Shown here: positions 7,017 through 16,650 of the stretch, in pieces
Layout: each line of letters opens with the position of its first letter
Position numbering within the stretch: the stretch's first letter is position 1
Sequence record: NC_135731.1
From: a phage
DNA: 64,000 nt
Strand: one strand, 5' to 3'
Position numbers and translations under genes: made by a program
Notes under the pieces: generated by a model
What the model saw: only the letters and a program-made list of their open reading frames with translations
Told to the model about the DNA's origin: nothing
Database searches by the model: none

Positions 7017-7093
7017 TGGTCTCCACGGAGTGATTCGAACACTCGACCTCCTGATCCCAAATCAGGCGCTCTACCAAGCTGAGCTACGCGGAG
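7017..7093 (-). tRNA. tRNA-Pro (anticodon UGG)
   Basis: Minus sense CTCCGCGTAGCTCAGCTTGGTAGAGCGCCTGATTTGGGATCAGG...GTTCGAATCACTCCGTGGAGACCA; cloverleaf hand-folded, anticodon loop TTTGGGA, encoded CCA. Confidence 0.7.
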
Positions 7094-7104
7094 TATTTAT
7101 AATT

Positions 7105-7179
7105 TGGTGGCCCTGGGTGGAATTGAACCACCGTCTGGCGATTATGAGTCGCTTGCTTGAACCTTCCAGCTACAGGGCC
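7105..7179 (-). tRNA. tRNA with CAU anticodon (Met, fMet or Ile-lysidine)
   Basis: Minus sense GGCCCTG...anticodon loop CTCATAA...GGTTCAATTCCACCCAGGGCCACCA; acceptor and T-arm pair well, D-stem weak. Confidence 0.6.
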
Positions 7180-7180
7180 A

Positions 7181-7256
7181 TGGTGCTGATGGCAGGACTT
7201 GAACCTGCAACCTATTGATTACAAATCAATTGCACTACCAATTGTGCTACATCAGC
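7181..7256 (-). tRNA. tRNA-Thr (anticodon UGU)
   Basis: Minus sense GCTGATGTAGCACAATTGGTAGTGCAATTGATTTGTAATCAAT...GGTTCAAGTCCTGCCATCAGCACCA; all four arms fold. Confidence 0.75.
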
Positions 7257-7262
7257 AAAAAG

Positions 7263-7360
7263 GTGCTAGGTGATGGAATCGAACCATCTATGTATTCAAC
7301 GACTACCTCGTCTATTTTCAGGATTAAAAATCCTCGCCCTTGCCAAAGGGCTTACCTAGC
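7263..7360 (-). tRNA. atypical tRNA-like element (about 98 nt; anticodon unresolved, possibly UUU)
   Basis: Perfect acceptor stem GCTAGGT/ACCTAGC, D-arm GCCC..GGGC and T-arm GATGGTTCGATTCCATC, but about 31 nt lie between anticodon stem and T-stem and CCA is not encoded. Confidence 0.35.
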
Positions 7361-7458
7361 TCAGTATGTTGACCATGTTGCTAGTCGGCGATGACGACTG
7401 TAACATTTGATAATCCGGTTCTGCTTCCGGCTTTCGCTTAATTACAAGGCCAACAATG

Positions 7459-7549
7459 TGGCGGAGAGTAATGGAATCGAACCATCATCGAGTCATCCTC
7501 AATGGGACGGTTTTCAAGACCGCTTGAGCACCATTGCTCCCTACCCTCC
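7459..7549 (-). tRNA. tRNA-Ser (anticodon UGA), type II
   Basis: Minus sense GGAGGGT...anticodon arm GCGGTCTTGAAAACCGT...long variable arm...GGTTCGATTCCATTACTCTCCGCCA; 91 nt; anticodon arm matches E. coli tRNA-Ser(UGA). Confidence 0.65.
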
Positions 7550-7663
7550 TTTATAAATTATACTGATAATGACACTGATTTTCGAGCAGTTAGTGACTAG
7601 TATAAACGACGATAAATATCAATGCCATTATCTGTATTATTTATGCATCTAAAAATATAAATT

Positions 7664-7750
7664 TGGTGGGGAGTGGTGGAGTCGAACCACCCGAGTCGCA
7701 ATGACAATAGATTTACAGTCTACACCGCTACCTCTACGGGATAACTCCCC
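7664..7750 (-). tRNA. tRNA-Tyr (anticodon GUA), type II
   Basis: Minus sense GGGGAGT...TAGACTGTAAATCTA...GGTTCGACTCCACCACTCCCCACCA; 87 nt; anticodon loop CTGTAAA. Confidence 0.65.
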
Positions 7751-7754
7751 AATT

Positions 7755-7829
7755 TGGCACCCCGTACTGGACTCGAACCAGTGTCAACGGCTTAGAAGGC
7801 CGCTGCTTTATCCACTAAGCTAACAGGGT
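7755..7829 (-). tRNA. tRNA-Arg (anticodon UCU)
   Basis: Minus sense ACCCTGTTAGCTTAGTGGATAAAGCAGCGGCCTTCTAAGCCGT...CTGGTTCGAGTCCAGTACGGGGTGCCA; A1:U72 acceptor pair. Confidence 0.6.
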
Positions 7830-7925
7830 ACTGGGTGGCTTTCTTTTACACCTTAGCCGCCAGAAAAGGTGGGAGACCATGTTTACAATATTACACTGTT
7901 AAGCAAAGTTTGTCAAGAAAATATT

Positions 7926-8264
7926 TTAGCTATTGCTAACAGGCTGTATTTCTGTAGTAAATGGCATAAAAGGTGCTGGTTTTTCAGCCTCTTCTACTAC
8001 CACCTCTTCCTCTTCACCAAACATCTCATCATATTCTTCCTGCATTCGGTCTGCCTTATCAAGAACATACTCTGCAATGCTTTGACGAATATTTTGTTTG
8101 GTTTTCGGGTCCAACATCAGCTCTCTTAAAACTTTGTGAGCTTCTGGAACCATCGCTATAAAAGATTCCTTCATATCAAGGATGTTCTTCTCTAGCTGAA
8201 TGGCGTTGGACTCCTCTTTCAGAGGTCTGCCTCTACGGCGACGCTTTTTAGTTGTATCCGCCAT
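7926..8264 (-). CDS. hypothetical protein (basic N-terminus, acidic C-terminus)
   Basis: Track ORF 7926..8384; start re-set to internal ATG (MADTTKKRRRRGRPLK...) after the GC-rich ORF-free segment. Confidence 0.4.
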   Translation of the reverse strand: MADTTKKRRRRGRPLKEESNAIQLEKNILDMKESFIAMVPEAHKVLRELMLDPKTKQNIRQSIAEYVLDKADRMQEEYDEMFGEEEEVVVEEAEKPAPFMPFTTEIQPVSNS

Positions 8265-8610
8265 GTTTCCTCCATTATCACGTGATAGGTGGATTTTATC
8301 ATAGCAAATACTGATTGTCAAGTTCGCCGCAGGGTGGTATTCCCTGCGACTTGTCCAGCGTCCTGGACCAGCAAGACCCAACAAGTGGGTTACCAGAGGC
8401 CTATTACCCGCGCTTCGGCTCGACCTTGTTACAGGTTGGCTGGGGTCACATCGTCATGTGCTGGCTGCCCCTACCATTTTAAGTGTGGTGCACTATCAAG
8501 CCCTCTAAGGGGAACTCAGTCTTCTCCGAACCCTGTTTCAAAGCATCCGGAGATAAAGCCATCAAATTCATCTTTAAATTGGATATTCATCATGATACAC
8601 GAAAACAACC

Positions 8611-10367: not shown

Positions 10368-10718
10368 CTAACCAGTTGTTGACATTCGAATAACTTCTTC
10401 TGGTGGCAAAACTTTGGAAAATGTGCATCTTTTACCTCTCCCTTGTGTGGATGTTTCAACAACTCCTGCACATTCTAAAGTTTTAACGCACGCTGCTGCT
10501 TTTGTTTTCTTTATCCCAACATCTGCTGCAATTTTCCTTGTGCTTGGTGTGAAGTGTGAATTTCCTCCAAGCTTATACCAGTTGTGCAGGTAGCAGTATA
10601 CAATCTTGTCATACAAGTCAAGAACAACAACCTCCCCAGTTGTGTCATTCAAAACTTTTGACATAGATAGTATTTCAAGGGGGACTTTAAGATATAGCAG
10701 CTTATCCCCATCTTTCAT
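10368..10718 (-). CDS. hypothetical protein, possible DNA-binding protein
   Basis: 116 aa ORF immediately upstream (minus sense) of the iteron array; HTH-like segment TRKIAADVGIKKTKAAACVKTL. Confidence 0.35.
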   Translation of the reverse strand: MKDGDKLLYLKVPLEILSMSKVLNDTTGEVVVLDLYDKIVYCYLHNWYKLGGNSHFTPSTRKIAADVGIKKTKAAACVKTLECAGVVETSTQGRGKRCTFSKVLPPEEVIRMSTTG

Positions 10719-10765
10719 ATCTCCTGATTCTCCTTGTGTGGCAATTTTCTTTAAAATAGCAGGGA

Positions 10766-11320
10766 TTACTCCCTGCTGTCAATATCAAAACTCATTGCAA
10801 TACGGTATGCCTCTTCTAATGGTAAGAGTCTCCCCCACACATCCCAACCGACATCAAGCTGCCTGCCAAACAACTGTTGTGTGGTTCCGTGAGCATGACC
10901 GAACAGTTGGACTGATCCGTGAGGCTTTCTGTTCCACTTTGCAAACTGGTAATGGCTCATACAGATCAAATTCTTGTTGTGGCGAAGCTCGTAATAATCT
11001 ACAACCTCATGACCGAACTCTTTCATAATTCTGACAGTCGTTCTTGTGTCATGGTTGCCACGAACAAGAATAATATGTCCGTTCAACATATTTAGAATAT
11101 CTGGAAGTAAGTTGTTGATATTCTTATCATTAGTGCACGCAATATCTCCCAGGTGGAACACAGTGTCTGCAGGTGACACAACAGAGTTCCACTCGGCGAT
11201 GATTCCAGCATTCATACTATCAAGATTGTGATCATACTGAGATCTGTGTTTTTGACATGACTCAAACTCCATGACCCGCTGGTGGAGAAAGTGTGTGTCG
11301 CTTGTTACAAAGTATTTCAT
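10766..11320 (-). CDS. calcineurin-like metallophosphoesterase (putative polynucleotide 3'-phosphatase)
   Basis: Track ORF 10766..11422; start re-set to MKYFVTSDTHF; motifs DxH (SDTHF), GDIACTND, GNHD. Confidence 0.6.
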   Translation of the reverse strand: MKYFVTSDTHFLHQRVMEFESCQKHRSQYDHNLDSMNAGIIAEWNSVVSPADTVFHLGDIACTNDKNINNLLPDILNMLNGHIILVRGNHDTRTTVRIMKEFGHEVVDYYELRHNKNLICMSHYQFAKWNRKPHGSVQLFGHAHGTTQQLFGRQLDVGWDVWGRLLPLEEAYRIAMSFDIDSRE

Positions 11321-11327
11321 ACATTCC

Positions 11328-11745
11328 TCATTTAAGTTTAATGCAGTTTTTAAGTTGGCGTTCCATACGATCCACAACCTCGTCTGAAGCATGAATGCTT
11401 TTATTACCGTGGCGGTTTTCAACCACGATCACGGTATAACTATACCCATAACTGATTGCCATGTCAACATATTCCTGCACATGTTTTTCTTTTGTAAAAG
11501 TATTACTTACCACGATACGGTCGTATCCCATACGCATCATATCTTCTACGTTATCTTTGCACCATTTTGCTGCGAGTGTTAATTTACTTGCATCCCAGTT
11601 GTAATTGCCGTCATCGTCATACCAGAACATGTCGTTCTCAAAATGTGGATACAGGCCTTCTAAAGATAGCGCATTTGCCAGTGTTGATTTGCCAGACCCC
11701 GGCAGACCACGCACGATATATAGCATTTTAGACATAGCAATCCTC
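11328..11745 (-). CDS. P-loop kinase (putative polynucleotide 5'-kinase)
   Basis: Track ORF 11328..11792; start re-set to MSKMLYIVRGLPGSGKST with RBS; Walker A GLPGSGKST; about 139 aa; adjacent to phosphoesterase and RNA ligase. Confidence 0.5.
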
Positions 11746-11835
11746 CGTTTTAATTTTAATGATAGTATACCTAACTGTTTTGTTAATTTCAAGTGTTGAC
11801 ACTAGGTTATTTGTGTGGCAGGATAGACTGACAAA

Positions 11836-12771
11836 ATGACAAATGAGGAACGTATGATGAAGTATTTTAATGCAGATGACCTAGTAGACAAAGGTCTTGT
11901 AACCAGTCGGTATTATCCAGATCTTGGATTAAAGATCTATAAATATGCCAGAAAAGTATTCTACAACAATCTGTGGCATTTGTCTCCGCGTTTACTGGAG
12001 TGCCGAGGTATTGTTGTTGGCAATGAGGGGAATGTTGTGGCATGGCCTTTCACAAAAGTATTCAACTTAGGAGAAAACTCCACCAACCTACCGGACAGTA
12101 AACTTGTTACTGCGGTAGAGAAAAAGAACGGATTCCTCGGTGTGGTATCATCTCATAAAGGTGAACTGTTGTTCTCAACAACCGGGTCTCTTGATTCCCC
12201 ATATTGTAACCTCGCAAAAGAAACCATCATGGAGCAATGTGGTAATTTAGATCTTATCAAGAAGGTTATGGGCAATGAAAACATGACATTCATGTTTGAA
12301 ATTTGCCACCCTTCAGATCCGCATATTGTTCAGGAAGATCATGGCGCATATTTGATAGGTTGCAGATATAATGATTCTGGAATAATGCTACCAGAAGCAG
12401 CTTTAGACGGGATTGCCAAATACCTTGGTGCAAAACGTCCTCACACTGTGCGTGAAATTCCGTTCAGCTATGCAAAAGAATTAGCTGCAGAAACAAGAGG
12501 TGAAGGGTATATGATTCGTAAGCCTTACTACCCTTATGATCTGCAGCTGAAGATCAAGTCTCCATACTATCTGGCACGGAAGGCTGTAATGAGGGGTAAA
12601 GCTTGGAAGATTTGGGATGATGATATCTTTAAACGTGTTGACGAAGAGTTTTACGGTATGGTAAAATTTATTCGTAGCAACTATACAGAAGATGTGTGGA
12701 ATTGCTTATTAGAGCAGGAGCGTCGTGAGATACTGGACTACTATTTCCACAACGAGGACTATATGCAATGA
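11836..12771 (+). CDS. RNA ligase (Rnl-type nucleotidyltransferase)
   Basis: Nucleotidyltransferase motif I KKNGFLG, motif IV EGYMIRK, motif V LKIKS; divergent from kinase/phosphatase pair. Confidence 0.55.
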   Translation: MTNEERMMKYFNADDLVDKGLVTSRYYPDLGLKIYKYARKVFYNNLWHLSPRLLECRGIVVGNEGNVVAWPFTKVFNLGENSTNLPDSKLVTAVEKKNGFLGVVSSHKGELLFSTTGSLDSPYCNLAKETIMEQCGNLDLIKKVMGNENMTFMFEICHPSDPHIVQEDHGAYLIGCRYNDSGIMLPEAALDGIAKYLGAKRPHTVREIPFSYAKELAAETRGEGYMIRKPYYPYDLQLKIKSPYYLARKAVMRGKAWKIWDDDIFKRVDEEFYGMVKFIRSNYTEDVWNCLLEQERREILDYYFHNEDYMQ

Positions 12772-13118
12772 AGAAGTGGATTGTGTGGCTTGATGATTTT
12801 AGAGATCCGTCAGATTATGGACTCCCAGACGCTCTGTGGCTAAAGAATTCTTCTGAGTTTATGGATTTTCTTAATGATAAGAGAAAGCTCTACAGACGCG
12901 TATCTGAGTGGTATTTTGACAATGATCTAGGTGAAGTTCTTGAAGGGTACGACTGCTTCTCTGCGCTAGAGGAGAAACTTGTATTCGGAAAGCCACCACT
13001 TATTGACAACGTGATTATTTTCGTGCATACTTCTAATCCATCGGCAGCTCGTAAATTTATGCTTGCTGCTGACTCATTCAAGAAGTTTGGAATAGAGATT
13101 AAACAAAACATCTACTGA
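12768..13118 (+). CDS. hypothetical protein
   Basis: 116 aa, ATGA overlap with RNA ligase stop; immediately precedes Sir2-like gene. Confidence 0.4.
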   Translation: MKKWIVWLDDFRDPSDYGLPDALWLKNSSEFMDFLNDKRKLYRRVSEWYFDNDLGEVLEGYDCFSALEEKLVFGKPPLIDNVIIFVHTSNPSAARKFMLAADSFKKFGIEIKQNIY

Positions 13119-13126
13119 GGACACTT

Positions 13127-13888
13127 ATGCGACGACTGATTATTATCTCCGGTGCTGGTTTGAGCGCTGAATCTGGTATCCCCACCTTCCGATCTGGTAG
13201 TACAGCAATGTGGGAGAATTTTAGCATCGATGAGGTATGCAACATCCACACCTTTGCCAAGAACTACGACAAGGTGCACGCATTCTATAATGCACGCCGT
13301 GCAGCTTTAGGGGGTGTTGAACCAAATATTGCCCATCTCCGCATCGCAGAATGGTATTCTCGTTGGTCTGGGCGTGTGATTAATCTTACAACCAACGTAG
13401 ATGATCTCTTGGAGCGTGCTGGTGTTAAACATGAAGATATCTTACATGTCCATGGGTATTTGCCTGAAATCACCTACGAAGATGCTGAAGGTAACGATGT
13501 AATTAAAAATATCGGATACACTGAGGTAGATACAGGCAAGTATATCTGGGTTAAGCCTAATGTGGTGTTCTTCGGAGAAGTAGCTCCGAAGTATACAGAC
13601 ATGTATGACCTGTTGACTTCTCTCACGAGCAATGATATGGTAATCCTGGTAGGTTGTTCTAACACAGTTATTAATTTTAACTGGGAATTGTTTCCTGCTA
13701 CTTGTAAAGGCACAAAACTGCTGATTGTAAACAAGTATGATTCGCAGAGTGCAGATGGAAGTGGCATTTCACGTAGCGACCTTTATCAATATGAGGATCG
13801 CGGGATCCCTGTATGGTTTAACGGTGCTGTTGACGCTTTCTCTGATAAAGCATTTATTGAAACTGTAGAAAACTTTATGGAACTGTAA
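13127..13888 (+). CDS. Sir2-like protein (sirtuin/NAD-binding fold)
   Basis: N-terminal motif GAGLSAESGIPTFRSG and HVHGYL His motif; no CxxC zinc-ribbon pairs seen. Confidence 0.65.
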   Translation: MRRLIIISGAGLSAESGIPTFRSGSTAMWENFSIDEVCNIHTFAKNYDKVHAFYNARRAALGGVEPNIAHLRIAEWYSRWSGRVINLTTNVDDLLERAGVKHEDILHVHGYLPEITYEDAEGNDVIKNIGYTEVDTGKYIWVKPNVVFFGEVAPKYTDMYDLLTSLTSNDMVILVGCSNTVINFNWELFPATCKGTKLLIVNKYDSQSADGSGISRSDLYQYEDRGIPVWFNGAVDAFSDKAFIETVENFMEL

Positions 13889-13902
13889 GAGGTGACCTTT
13901 TA

Positions 13903-14616
13903 ATGCTAAATACTAAACTGATCGACAACCTGGAAAAACTGTCTCAGCCTGAAAACTACCTTTGGTCTGCCAACTGGGTGGAAAACTGGAACCGTGTGGC
14001 AGCTAAAGTGAAAAAATCATACACACCATTCGAATTACAGCTTAGCTTCATTGAGGAAGAGTTCAATGAGGTTTTGGAAGAGCTGGAGAAAGGTGATGGT
14101 GGAGATCACCTGCTAAAAGAGGCCTGCGATCTTCACGTTGTCACAAGTTATGCAGCCTATCTCGTTAATGACAATCACGAAAAGTGGTCAAACCTGTTTG
14201 ATAATCCACGAGGTCTTAAGTTCAAGATCGGTGAGTTCTATGATACACTGATCGCTGCGAAAAACACATCCAAGCAAAGATCGTCAGCTTACCGCTTAGC
14301 GGAGTTGTCAACAGCTTTGCTGTTCCAGCTTCGCGGCGATGTGTGCGGGATGATGCGTAAGGTTCTCAAATCGAATGACAGCAAGTTTGCACGGGTAAAC
14401 CATCTACGGCATTCACACGGTGCCAGTGCAGATATGCCTGCTGAACAACTCATCGAGTTGGAGATTAAAGATCTTGAGCGTCGTTTTGGTGGTCGCTACG
14501 AAGGTTTCGTTGCTAAAGAGGAGTTCTACAACGGCAATAAAGTTATTATATTCCTTGACAGTAAAGGTAAGATTATGAAGCCTTCGAGCTTCAAGGATGT
14601 AACAGAGTATATTTAA
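13903..14616 (+). CDS. hypothetical protein, possible MazG-like NTP pyrophosphohydrolase
   Basis: Acidic helix pattern EEEFNEVLEELEKGD...LLKEACDLH reminiscent of MazG/HisE fold; weak. Confidence 0.3.
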   Translation: MLNTKLIDNLEKLSQPENYLWSANWVENWNRVAAKVKKSYTPFELQLSFIEEEFNEVLEELEKGDGGDHLLKEACDLHVVTSYAAYLVNDNHEKWSNLFDNPRGLKFKIGEFYDTLIAAKNTSKQRSSAYRLAELSTALLFQLRGDVCGMMRKVLKSNDSKFARVNHLRHSHGASADMPAEQLIELEIKDLERRFGGRYEGFVAKEEFYNGNKVIIFLDSKGKIMKPSSFKDVTEYI

Positions 14617-14619
14617 CAA

Positions 14620-14647
14620 CATAGCCGGGATTACCCGGCTTTACTTA
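14620..14647 (+). terminator. rho-independent terminator
   Basis: Hairpin AGCCGGGATTACCCGGCT followed by TTACTT after stop of 13903..14616. Confidence 0.5.
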
Positions 14648-14678
14648 TTATGGAAAGTATGCAGTGGGGTAGTTAGTT

Positions 14679-14987
14679 ATGTACAAGCATTCCAGAGATC
14701 TTGAAAAAGATGCTGTGTTTGGCGACCAGATGAAGGAGCTGATCAAACTTATTGGTAGAATGGAAGATAAGTTTGACACTAAAATCTACATCGATAGCAA
14801 GATCTTCAACCACAAAATATGGACAAATGTGTGTGTTGGGCTACATGGTGATAAAGATATTGTAAATTTGGTTGTAATAAAGTTCATAGTGTGGCAGAAT
14901 AAGACTATACGTTATTCCGATCCACACTTACTTGTTTATCCTATAAAAGACCTACTACAGAAGGAGGACTGCAATGCCGTTATTTAA
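14679..14987 (+). CDS. hypothetical protein
   Basis: 102 aa ORF. Confidence 0.35.
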   Translation: MYKHSRDLEKDAVFGDQMKELIKLIGRMEDKFDTKIYIDSKIFNHKIWTNVCVGLHGDKDIVNLVVIKFIVWQNKTIRYSDPHLLVYPIKDLLQKEDCNAVI

Positions 14988-15243
14988 TCTTGCTAAACCT
15001 GTAGAAGCCCACCAGTTTGACGGAAGCTCTTCATCAGTATCTGATCTGCAACGGTGGATTGATACAGGTGTGTTTACATCGTCACCTGTTCGGACCAGAG
15101 ATCTTCGTCGCATGTGTGAGCTTGTCGAGCCTTTTGGTAACCTTGTCTTGTACCAGGGAGATTGGCTAGTTGACTTTATGGGAGACTGGTTGGTAATGAG
15201 TAAAGAAGAGATGTTTAAAATTTTTAAGGAAGAGGACGAGTAA
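14974..15243 (+). CDS. hypothetical protein
   Basis: 89 aa ORF, ATGA overlap with ligase start. Confidence 0.35.
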   Translation: MPLFNLAKPVEAHQFDGSSSSVSDLQRWIDTGVFTSSPVRTRDLRRMCELVEPFGNLVLYQGDWLVDFMGDWLVMSKEEMFKIFKEEDE

Positions 15244-16526
15244 TGCATCAGATCAAAACAACACTGTACGCACTGAATAAAGATGGCAGCTACCAACAGT
15301 GGAAAGTATTCACGGATGGTGATAAGGTTATCGTAGAGTTTGGCAAGCTTGATGGTAAACTGCAATACAAAGAGACGATCTGCACACCTAAGAACGTGGG
15401 TCGTGCCAATGAAACTACAGCTGAGCAACAGGCCGAGCTGGAAGCGATCAGTAAGTGGGAAAAACAAGTCCGTCTGGGGTATGTTGAAAACATGGAAGAT
15501 TGCGAGCAGGGTGTTGATCTTTTACCCATGCTGGTGCATGACTACCTGAAGCGTGGCAAGGCACTTAAATTACCTTGCTGGATCTTGCGTAAGTTAGATG
15601 GCCTTCGTCTGCTTGTTGTTTTCCAAAATGGTGAGCCTAAATTTATTTCCCGTGGTAATAAGTCCTACCCTATTCAAGGAAAGCTTTTAGAGCAACTTCG
15701 TTCTTTCCATTCTACCACTGGGATTAAACAACTTGATGGGGAACTATACATTCATGGTCTTCCTTTGCAGAAAATAGTGTCTCTTGCTAAACGGTGGCGC
15801 ACACAGGAAGAGATTCAGGCCGAGATCGATAAAGACTATGAGGCAGATAAAAAACGCCGTCATGCCGCAATTAAGGCAGGCTTATCAACATACAAAAACT
15901 TCAACAAGGTAGATATTCCTGTCGATGTTGAGCCTGTTCGTGATGATTTGCGTTACGGTGGGTACTGTAGCTACGATCTGGAGTATCACATTTTTGATAT
16001 TCCTAGCGACAAGGTGTGGTGGGATCCAGAAACAGAGTCTGGACGCTGCAAGGATCTTATGGATGCAGGGGATACCGTTACCACTCTGATGCTTGACCAT
16101 ATCAAGGTTGTTGACGCAGAGCTTGCGTACACAGTTGATCATTGTGAAGAATCTGTTGGTATATTCATGTCCGAAGGATATGAAGGTACTATCATGCGTA
16201 ATTTCTGCGGTAAATACGAGTACGGTCAGCGAACATCTGAAGCATTGAAATGGAAAAAGTTCAACGACGCAGAGGTGAAAGTTATTGACGTTGAGAAAGA
16301 TAAGAATGACGAAGGTGTTCTTATCTGTGTTGACAAGGAAGGTGTTATTGTTAAAATGAAGATGAAAGGCACGCACGAGGAGCGTAGCTATGACAGGATG
16401 CAGGAAATGATCGGCAAGTTTGTCACCTTCAAATATCAATCAAGGACAGAAGACAACAACTACCAATTCCCTGTCGGTATCTGCGTCCGAAATGTTAACC
16501 CAGATACTTGGGAGGTGCTTGAATGA
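15243..16526 (+). CDS. ATP-dependent DNA ligase (T7-like) with N-terminal extension
   Basis: KxDG adenylation motif in ILRKLDGLRLLV; DGELYIHG and EGTIMRN blocks parallel T7 ligase; ends in OB-fold-like region. Confidence 0.65.
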   Translation: MHQIKTTLYALNKDGSYQQWKVFTDGDKVIVEFGKLDGKLQYKETICTPKNVGRANETTAEQQAELEAISKWEKQVRLGYVENMEDCEQGVDLLPMLVHDYLKRGKALKLPCWILRKLDGLRLLVVFQNGEPKFISRGNKSYPIQGKLLEQLRSFHSTTGIKQLDGELYIHGLPLQKIVSLAKRWRTQEEIQAEIDKDYEADKKRRHAAIKAGLSTYKNFNKVDIPVDVEPVRDDLRYGGYCSYDLEYHIFDIPSDKVWWDPETESGRCKDLMDAGDTVTTLMLDHIKVVDAELAYTVDHCEESVGIFMSEGYEGTIMRNFCGKYEYGQRTSEALKWKKFNDAEVKVIDVEKDKNDEGVLICVDKEGVIVKMKMKGTHEERSYDRMQEMIGKFVTFKYQSRTEDNNYQFPVGICVRNVNPDTWEVLE

Positions 16527-16650
16527 TGTAGGAAGGTTCAGTAGGTAACGGTAGCCAATCGAATGATGGTTTTTCAATTGGCACCTACATAACCACACTG
16601 TGTAGTGTTGTTGATCTGGTTAGTTATGAGTAAACTGGAGAGTATGAAAA

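Follow-up and report, generated by a model that had tools for sequence, protein, structure and literature searches.

Among the described phage systems that contain a sirtuin, the closest is the type-2 gene neighbourhood of Iyer et al. (2022), whose prototypes are Escherichia phage V5 and Proteus phage Mydo and which comprises a sirtuin, a T4-like tRNA ligase, cREC, a nucleotide kinase, a MazG pyrophosphatase and sometimes a calcineurin-like phosphoesterase (PMC9503650). The sirtuin of this neighbourhood was predicted to remove 2'-phosphates from RNA at the expense of NAD+, like KptA/Tpt1 (PMC9503650, section 3.7.3), and the associated enzymes were proposed to open a cyclic phosphate or to process the ADP-ribose>P by-product (PMC9503650). 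We analyzed a 64,000-nucleotide (nt) stretch of phage DNA, referred to as the window (NC_135731.1), and in particular its sirtuin gene at positions 13127-13888. The window derives from Escherichia phage phiWec196 (LC739542.1; 100% identity across 10700-16600), an rV5-like Vequintavirus, and a further 111 phage records match the 5.9 kb of 10700-16600 (at least 80% covered, at least 90% identity). Between phiWec196 and the closest other rV5-like phages, the repair cluster is 96-97% identical. The gene set around the phiWec196 sirtuin was the same as in type 2, with no substantive difference, and phiWec196 is a member of the same phage group. The gene, its annotation and its neighbourhood are already known from the literature for this group, and the finding in itself contributes little, since annotation of the gene is widespread and an interpretation of its surroundings is already in print. 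What the locus contains is a zinc-less sirtuin from a phage-restricted clade, encoded beside cREC within an RNA heal-and-seal operon. The central feature is as follows.

13127-13888, plus strand: sirtuin (Sir2 family) of a zinc-less phage clade, 253 amino acids (aa), recognized by Pfam SIR2, PHROG 2162, the match to CobB, AlphaFold2 (AF2) and Foldseek.

The initial annotation of this DNA had described a Sir2-like open reading frame (ORF) with a Rossmann motif and an HG-type motif, and both were present, GAGLSAESGIPTFR at residues 9-22 and HVHGYL at residues 107-112. The Pfam SIR2 model (PF02146) matched with a score of 97.3 bits (cut-off, 24 bits; E=1.4e-27), residues 9-181 aligning with positions 1-178 of the 180 in the model, and PHROG 2162, "Sir2 (NAD-dependent deacetylase)", matched at E=3e-108. 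The best sequence match among solved structures was E. coli CobB (1S5P, E=1e-22), followed by SIRT5 and the archaeal Sir2-Af1. An AF2 model built with 54 homologues reached a mean predicted local distance difference test score (pLDDT) of 89.7 and a predicted template modelling score (pTM) of 0.88, and the top 50 Foldseek matches to this model were all sirtuins, with CobB first (E=3.6e-18, TM 0.71-0.75) and SIRT5 and Sir2-Af1 also among them. The Sir2 fold, whose absence had been named beforehand as evidence against the claim, was therefore found both by profile and by structure prediction. These matches and the predicted structure indicate that the ORF at 13127-13888 encodes a genuine Sir2-fold protein. 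SIR2 was the sole Pfam family matched and all structural neighbours were sirtuins, with no homology to Tpt1/KptA in these searches; any relation to Tpt1/KptA would therefore be a functional analogy and not family membership.

The motifs of the sirtuin are GAG (9-11), FR (21-22), FYNARR (53-58), TNVD (89-92), the catalytic His109 and the FGE loop (148-151). Across 54 sequences of the clade, residues G9, A10, G11, S16, F21, R22, N90, D92, H109 and G110 are invariant, as are F148, F149, E151, G176, S178, Y54 and R57. The Gln of the QNxD motif is replaced by Thr89, which is likewise invariant in the 54 sequences. Judging from the retention of the NAD pocket, the Asn and Asp of QNxD, the catalytic His and the FGE loop, the phage sirtuin is probably catalytically competent.

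The initial annotation had also noted the absence of CxxC pairs, and this observation was confirmed. The cysteines of the sirtuin are C38, C177 and C193, none of which stands in a CxxC pair, and no cysteine lies between His109 and Glu151, that is, in the zinc-binding segment from HG to FGE. CxxC occurred in none of 119 sirtuin homologues (at least 47% identity), and the zinc cysteines are likewise absent from the sirtuins of T5-like phages, phi92-like phages, KVP40 and jumbo phages, whereas CobB has them in the aligned segment. The length of the segment is kept, and the AF2 model places three beta strands in it (110-118, 124-128 and 142-146, with pLDDT >93), suggesting that the small zinc module persists without the metal. 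A four-cysteine structural zinc site is part of the conserved sirtuin core (PMC8603916), and its clade-wide loss is an addition of the present analysis to the account of Iyer et al. (2022).

Relatives of the sirtuin were found in 1012 of 50,697 phage records, many of them annotated "Sir2-like" or "NAD-dependent deacetylase". Two strict clade motifs, searched against 185,579 species genomes, matched only two contigs from metagenome-assembled genomes (MAGs), a count that is a lower bound for cellular homologues because the motif patterns are strict. In these searches, the clade was seen almost only in phages.

The sirtuin gene had been described as co-located with RNA repair genes, and this location is real. 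An Rnl1-type ligase, a P-loop kinase and a calcineurin-like phosphoesterase adjoin, and all type-2 components flank the gene. The neighbouring features are listed below.

11836-12771, plus strand: Rnl1-type ATP-dependent RNA ligase, 311 aa, first gene of the apparent operon (Pfam RNA_lig_T4_1, E=2e-14; PHROG 562, E=1e-65).
12768-13118, plus strand: cREC (cyclic-phosphate processing receiver-like domain), 116 aa (Pfam PF20274 cREC_REC, E=9.1e-14).
13903-14616, plus strand: MazG-like nucleotide pyrophosphohydrolase, 237 aa, last gene of the apparent operon (PHROG 671, E=1e-21).
14623-14640, plus strand: terminator-like GC-rich hairpin with a T-rich tail, 7 nt past the MazG-like stop (phage Murica has an annotated terminator at this position).
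11328-11735, minus strand: P-loop AAA_33 polynucleotide-kinase-like kinase, ~135 aa from the ATG at 11735 (Pfam AAA_33, E=2.3e-10).
10766-11320, minus strand: calcineurin-like metallophosphoesterase, 184 aa from the ATG at 11320 (Pfam Metallophos_2, E=1.4e-6; PHROG 547, E=6e-53; Murica annotation).
15243-16526, plus strand: ATP-dependent DNA ligase, 427 aa (Pfam DNA_ligase_A_M and OB_2; PHROG 114, E=8e-83).

On the plus strand, the gene order is RNA ligase, cREC, Sir2 and MazG-like, and these four genes form an apparent operon. An ATGA overlap had been placed between the 116-aa ORF and the sirtuin gene; the overlap exists (12768-12771), but there it is the RNA ligase gene that ends and the 116-aa ORF that begins. 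The cREC and Sir2 genes are instead separated by an 8-nt spacer, with a GAGGA Shine-Dalgarno sequence across the TGA stop of cREC, and the spacer between Sir2 and the MazG-like gene is 14 nt. The hairpin is an argument by its position and not by count, because terminator-like sites in the region are no more numerous than in shuffled sequence. The kinase, whose start codon was assigned with the Murica annotation as a guide, also matched PHROG 2071 (E=9e-54) and PHROG 505, polynucleotide kinase (E=2e-9). The phosphoesterase gene follows the kinase gene after 7 nt, and the pair is divergent from the ligase operon. The MazG-like protein had no match in Pfam and no sequence match in the PDB; its counterpart in phage Murica is labelled nucleotide pyrophosphohydrolase, and the gene has been assigned to the MazG superfamily (PMC9503650). 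The DNA ligase gene stays with the cluster in related phages; in those of the Mydovirus-like type, it comes immediately after Sir2. Between the MazG-like gene and that of the DNA ligase, at 14679-15243, there are two small ORFs of 102 and 89 aa (PHROGs 7684 and 14585), which accompany the cluster in Mydovirus-like and related phages.

This arrangement resembles the heal-and-seal pathway of T4 Pnkp and Rnl1 in that an Rnl1-family ligase, a 5'-kinase and a 3'-end phosphoesterase are encoded by a virulent coliphage with tRNA genes. It differs in that the kinase and the phosphatase of phiWec196 are separate proteins, the phosphatase is of the calcineurin type and not HAD, and the ligase has 311 aa, compared with the 375-residue chain of T4 Rnl1 (2C5U). 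The T4 pathway, moreover, has no sirtuin, cREC or MazG.

The 116-aa ORF upstream of the sirtuin gene, regarded as unrecognized in the initial annotation, matched Pfam PF20274 cREC_REC with 52.3 bits against a cut-off of 27. Nearly all of the 55 cREC homologues matched PF20274, and the receiver-type residues D51, D53, S89 and K96 were invariant among them, with D9, D10 and T88 conserved in at least 90%. The AF2 model of cREC had a pLDDT of 92.3, and its best fold matches were receiver domains, matched weakly (E ~1e-2, TM ~0.6). No related solved structure was found when the cREC profile was searched against the PDB. At least one recent record names the gene a cyclic-phosphate processing receiver protein. 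The cREC domain was defined in 2021 by the same group as Iyer et al. (2022) (PMC7824862); it was predicted to process RNA ends and ADP-ribose cyclic phosphates and is experimentally uncharacterized (PMC9503650). The suggestion that this ORF is a partner of the sirtuin is plausible, as the Sir2-cREC adjacency recurs in jumbo phages, where Sir2 is only 34-39% identical.

Following Iyer et al. (2022), we favour, with a probability of roughly 40%, the explanation that the sirtuin is an NAD-dependent (nicotinamide adenine dinucleotide-dependent), Tpt1-like remover of RNA 2'-phosphates; to call the phage sirtuin a nucleic-acid enzyme is likewise tentative, with the odds somewhat against it. In the proposed pathway, a host ribonuclease would cut tRNA or other RNA to leave 2',3'-cyclic phosphate and 5'-OH ends, the kinase and phosphoesterases would heal the ends, and the ligase would seal them. 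The RNA 2'-phosphate would then attack C1'' of NAD+ in the sirtuin, with loss of nicotinamide, in an NAD+-dependent step analogous to that of Tpt1/KptA. cREC, as an Asp-based phosphohydrolase, would open either the RNA cyclic phosphate to a 2'-phosphate or the ADP-ribose cyclic phosphate, and the MazG-like enzyme (a Nudix protein in jumbo phages) would degrade the ADP-ribose by-product. We infer the sirtuin, cREC and MazG-like steps from genomic context and from the chemical parallel between sirtuins and Tpt1.

In the sirtuin reaction, an oxygen nucleophile attacks C1'' of NAD+, and the reaction finishes with an attack by the ribose 2''-OH. Tpt1 is described as acting in two steps via a 1''-linked ADP-ribose intermediate, which is resolved by the ribose 2''-OH (PMC11417386). 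Because the two reactions share this order of attacks, first on C1'' and then by the 2''-OH, the Tpt1-like model is chemically reasonable, and it best explains the presence of phosphohydrolase and pyrophosphatase partners. Tpt1/KptA, which also consumes NAD+ and releases nicotinamide, and which is associated with RNA ligases and cyclic phosphodiesterases, is proposed here as a functional analogue only; it has an unrelated fold of the ADP-ribosyltransferase superfamily (PMC9503650) and no sequence similarity to the sirtuin.

The genomic contexts of the clade were surveyed at 67 Sir2 loci, and the counts are descriptive only, because the loci were redundantly sampled. All three published contexts were reproduced, namely the ligase cluster (type 2), the Sir2-Nudix-cREC arrangement in jumbo phages (type 1) and the HAD phosphatase in T5-like phages (type 3), so that sirtuins of this clade adjoin enzymes of RNA ends or phosphate processing in three phage backgrounds that are unrelated. 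At 13 of the 67 loci, from rV5-like and Mydovirus-like phages, genes for the phosphoesterase, kinase, Rnl, MazG and DNA ligase were found near Sir2, most with cREC as well; the gene order was rearranged among these 13 loci and the Sir2 identity fell to ~45%. At 29 loci, from T5-like phages, a gene matching Pfam HAD_SAK_2 (E=2e-20), which Pfam describes as "HAD domain in Swiss Army Knife RNA repair proteins", lay 0-440 nt downstream of Sir2. Neither context was present at the other 25 loci (phi92-like phages, KVP40 and other phages), where the neighbours were DUF7275/DUF7277, DUF7415 or unrecognized and no recognizable RNA-repair gene was seen. Just beyond Sir2 and HAD_SAK, the T5-like phages also encode one or two small proteins that consist of DUF7415 repeats (E=1e-32), as at 7494-8323 in the T5-like phage IrisVonRoten (L001) and ~536 nt downstream of Sir2 in two further loci (L029 and L031).

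In the jumbo phages SD-1_S14 of Salmonella (L087, 4965-6894) and K64-1 of Klebsiella (L088, 1767-6905), genes for Sir2, a Nudt16-like Nudix protein, cREC and a conserved 100-aa ORF stand in tandem. The Sir2-Nudix-cREC genes of K64-1 lie just downstream of the NAD-salvage genes NatV and NadV, and a NadV-like gene precedes Sir2 in a MAG contig (L089). The nearby NadV-type genes fit a real turnover of NAD+ by the sirtuin. The NAD motifs of the K64-1 sirtuin are degenerate, with GNG for GAG and YD for FR, and this particular protein may be inactive.

At the phiWec196 locus, as in the described phage clade of RNA-repair sirtuins, genes for the processing of RNA ends or ADP-ribose phosphates are linked to the sirtuin, and no Macro domain or O-acyl-ADP-ribose esterase was matched among the neighbour proteins scanned, none of the scans being aimed at Macro. 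Because HAD and receiver domains share Asp-phosphoryl chemistry, the partner that recurs is a phosphohydrolase rather than an O-acyl-ADP-ribose esterase of the Macro type. Such an Asp-based enzyme (cREC or HAD), in many cases accompanied by a pyrophosphatase, would fit a phosphate-bearing substrate or product better than O-acyl-ADP-ribose. The exchange of the pyrophosphatase, MazG-like in rV5-like phages and Nudix in jumbo phages, fits the disposal of an ADP-ribose derivative.

Several observations weigh against the Tpt1-like proposal. The sirtuin is not an obligate member of the repair cluster. In phi92-like (Justusliebigvirus-type) phages, cREC, phosphoesterase, Rnl, kinase, DNA ligase and MazG genes occur together without Sir2 (L077 and L078, 6956-12513), and the Sir2 gene lies ~30 kb away on the same contigs, among unassigned genes (L037 and L039). 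In two phi92-like variants, genes for cREC, phosphoesterase, DNA ligase and MazG are together and Sir2 is at another place; no other ligase or kinase was found at that locus. This detachment of Sir2 from the cluster in phi92-like phages is a further addition to Iyer et al. (2022). A homologous ligase-kinase-phosphoesterase cluster in Pseudomonas phage JG004 (L084, 2972-9345) and Vibrio phage AG74 (L085, 4495-9918) has no Sir2 or cREC within 4.5 kb on either side of the ligase. Conversely, no Rnl homologue was found within 8 kb of Sir2 in T5-like phages, and the hosts of T5-like phages are scarce among the records bearing Rnl (Salmonella, 14 records, versus 289 for Sir2); the T5-like phages may have no 2'-phosphate junction to clean. 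At the level of the protein, the sirtuin family is acidic, with a median isoelectric point (pI) of 5.2, unlike what would be expected of an RNA binder, and the determinants of an acyl-lysine deacylase are all kept, including the Tyr-x-x-Arg pair and the FGE loop. The ligase is similar to T4 Rnl1, an enzyme that does not require a 2'-phosphate, and not to the fungal ligase Trl1. By analogy, the phosphoesterase, kinase and ligase could be sufficient for repair on their own, and the activity of cREC is itself a prediction. No experimental study of any phage sirtuin was found in the literature, and to our knowledge no sirtuin has been shown to act on a phosphate nucleophile.

The resemblance of the ligase to T4 Rnl1 came from its family profile, which matched 2C5U at E=3e-12 over the adenylyltransferase part only; the single ligase sequence gave no useful match in the PDB, and the fungal Trl1 ligases did not match the family profile even at E<=10. 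In the fungal tRNA ligase Trl1-LIG, a His-Arg-Arg triad reads the 2'-phosphate (PMC11404444). The phage ligase family has an invariant His163, eight residues past the motif III Glu155, where T4 Rnl1 carries an Arg in the profile alignment, and conserved basic residues K248, K249 and R253 just past the motif V lysines K239 and K241. The placement of these residues loosely recalls the fungal triad and is only a lead.

The retained active site bears most directly on a different explanation, that the sirtuin is a classical NAD+-dependent protein lysine deacylase (deacetylase or desuccinylase) acting on host or phage proteins, a possibility that we take seriously but would not assume. The phage sirtuin shares with CobB (1S5P, 6RXJ) and human SIRT5 the Rossmann fold, the GAGxSxxSGIxTFR motif, an identical FYNARR, the catalytic His-Gly and the FGE loop, and its nearest relatives in both sequence and structure are CobB, SIRT5 and Sir2-Af1. 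The Tyr-x-x-Arg pair binds acidic acyl groups (succinyl, malonyl) in CobB and SIRT5, and the FGE loop lines the acyl-lysine tunnel of sirtuins. These class III determinants and the catalytic residues are kept and invariant, and by the active site alone a deacylase is the best-supported model; in jumbo-phage sirtuins, the first Arg of FYNARR is replaced by Leu. The acidic pI is as in CobB. Attractive targets would be the catalytic lysines of the adjacent RNA and DNA ligases, by analogy with the reactivation of acetyl-CoA synthetase by CobB, and the Sir2 gene does abut the DNA ligase gene in Mydovirus-like phages. Another attractive target would be the receiver-like neighbour, as CobB deacetylates CheY (cited in PMC9503650). 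The 25 loci with no recognizable RNA-repair neighbour also agree with a deacylase.

On the other hand, the phage sirtuin is only ~27% identical to CobB and SIRT5, has TTNVD in place of TQNID and a distinct C-terminal 50 residues, and has lost, throughout its clade, the cysteines of the zinc module. It fell below every NCBIfam threshold for CobB and related deacylases, the best being NF001753 (125.1 bits against 243), with prot_deacyl_CobB at 105 against 320. A deacylase would also leave without obvious reason the linkage to three different RNA-end enzyme sets, with phosphohydrolases and pyrophosphatases as partners and no O-acyl-ADP-ribose esterase recognized in the scans described above. In addition, the E. 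coli host already has CobB. An apparent seven-residue insertion after the GCS motif, seen relative to CobB, was put down to the use of a truncated CobB fragment in the alignment; the loop after this motif is presumably of normal length, judging from the Thermotoga Sir2 sequence.

The jumbo-phage loci, which lack an RNA ligase, raise another explanation, namely that Sir2, cREC and the pyrophosphatase form a soluble NAD/ADP-ribose counter-defence module independent of RNA ligation, acting, for example, on an immune signal, on toxic ADP-ribose phosphate from a host NAD-cleaving defence or on an NAD-capped RNA end. The triad is common to rV5-like and jumbo phages, and that of K64-1 follows NAD-salvage genes. 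Furthermore, the ligase-kinase clusters of JG004 and AG74 directly adjoin the NARP1 genes (Prs-like Adps and Namat) and a phosphatase, NARP1 having been described as NAD-reconstitution genes (bioRxiv 10.1101/2024.02.11.579819). In several phage groups, RNA-repair genes and NAD-restoring genes seem to be located close together, although this adjacency may mean little, since phage genomes tend to group accessory and anti-defence genes in any case. The predicted action of cREC on ADP-ribose cyclic phosphates (PMC9503650) would suit such a module, and host defences that produce ADP-ribose-1''-phosphate, together with phage phosphatases that counter them, are documented (bioRxiv 10.64898/2026.01.28.702374). 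Nevertheless, we consider this explanation unlikely. The sirtuin has no homology to the defence-type Sir2 NADases, a free-running NADase would harm the phage, and no homologue of NAD-salvage, NARP, Nudix or HAD_SAK genes was found in the 64-kb window. A related idea, in which Sir2 would rebuild NAD+ from ADP-ribose-1''-phosphate and nicotinamide, was set aside because by our own estimate the reaction is thermodynamically uphill.

The initial annotation had further mentioned that Sir2 domains also serve as NAD-consuming effectors in bacterial defence, and had suggested that a phage copy could modify host or phage proteins or manipulate NAD pools. The conserved neighbours, being enzymes for RNA ends or ADP-ribose phosphates, point to an NAD-dependent step of RNA repair, which that annotation did not propose. 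A relation to defence-type effectors was not supported. The sirtuin shares with the defence Sir2 NADases (ThsA, DSR1/2, SIR2-HerA and SIR2-APAZ/pAgo) the Sir2 superfamily and the use of NAD+, but it showed no resemblance beyond this, with no PADLOC match at E<=0.01 and with the class III deacylases CobB and SIRT5 as its nearest relatives. The gene belongs to the genome of a lytic phage rather than to a defence island, its product keeps the canonical deacylase loops, its neighbours are repair enzymes, and nothing was identified as a sensor or as a HerA, SLOG or Argonaute partner. A defence-type NADase was therefore rejected. A protein mono-ADP-ribosyltransferase like SirTM or SIRT4/6, modifying a host or phage protein as T4 Alt and Mod do, appears improbable as well. 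Sirtuins can ADP-ribosylate (PMC9503650), and the gene is an accessory gene of the phage early region, as would suit such a role; however, its nearest relatives are deacylases and not SirTM, the context suggests no protein target, and the characterized sirtuin systems pair with Macro, of which no partner was recognized among the scanned neighbours.

If the prediction of an RNA-phosphate substrate is true, sirtuin chemistry would extend from acyl-lysine to RNA phosphates, and the enzyme would be the first sirtuin shown to use a phosphate nucleophile instead of acyl-lysine and a non-homologous replacement of Tpt1/KptA. In more than 1000 sequenced phages, tRNA repair would gain a new, NAD-consuming branch. 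The rV5-like, T5-like, phi92-like and jumbo phages of enterobacteria would then spend NAD+ on repairing RNA cut by host defences, and tRNA-targeting immunity would be linked with the fight over NAD+. The idea of an RNA enzyme has been in print since 2022, and novelty would lie in its demonstration. If the sirtuin is instead a deacylase, phages would reset the acylation of host or phage proteins. The question of function is directly testable, because the protein is small, confidently folded by prediction, zinc-less and easy to assay.

Among the database records, ~18-25 GenBank entries of the MG0656xx series, titled "Campylobacter phage", are ~97% identical to the E. coli rV5-like phages at 10700-16600. 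These records are probably mislabelled or represent contaminants of Campylobacter phage preparations.

In the window, seven tRNA genes (Pro, Met, Thr, Ser, Tyr and Arg) lie at 7017-7829 on the minus strand, 3 kb from the repair cluster, and their products are possible candidate substrates for it. A 99-nt tRNA-like gene at 7262-7360 was assigned a four-base anticodon by ARAGORN and carries the label "tRNA-OTHER Asp|Gly" in phage Murica.

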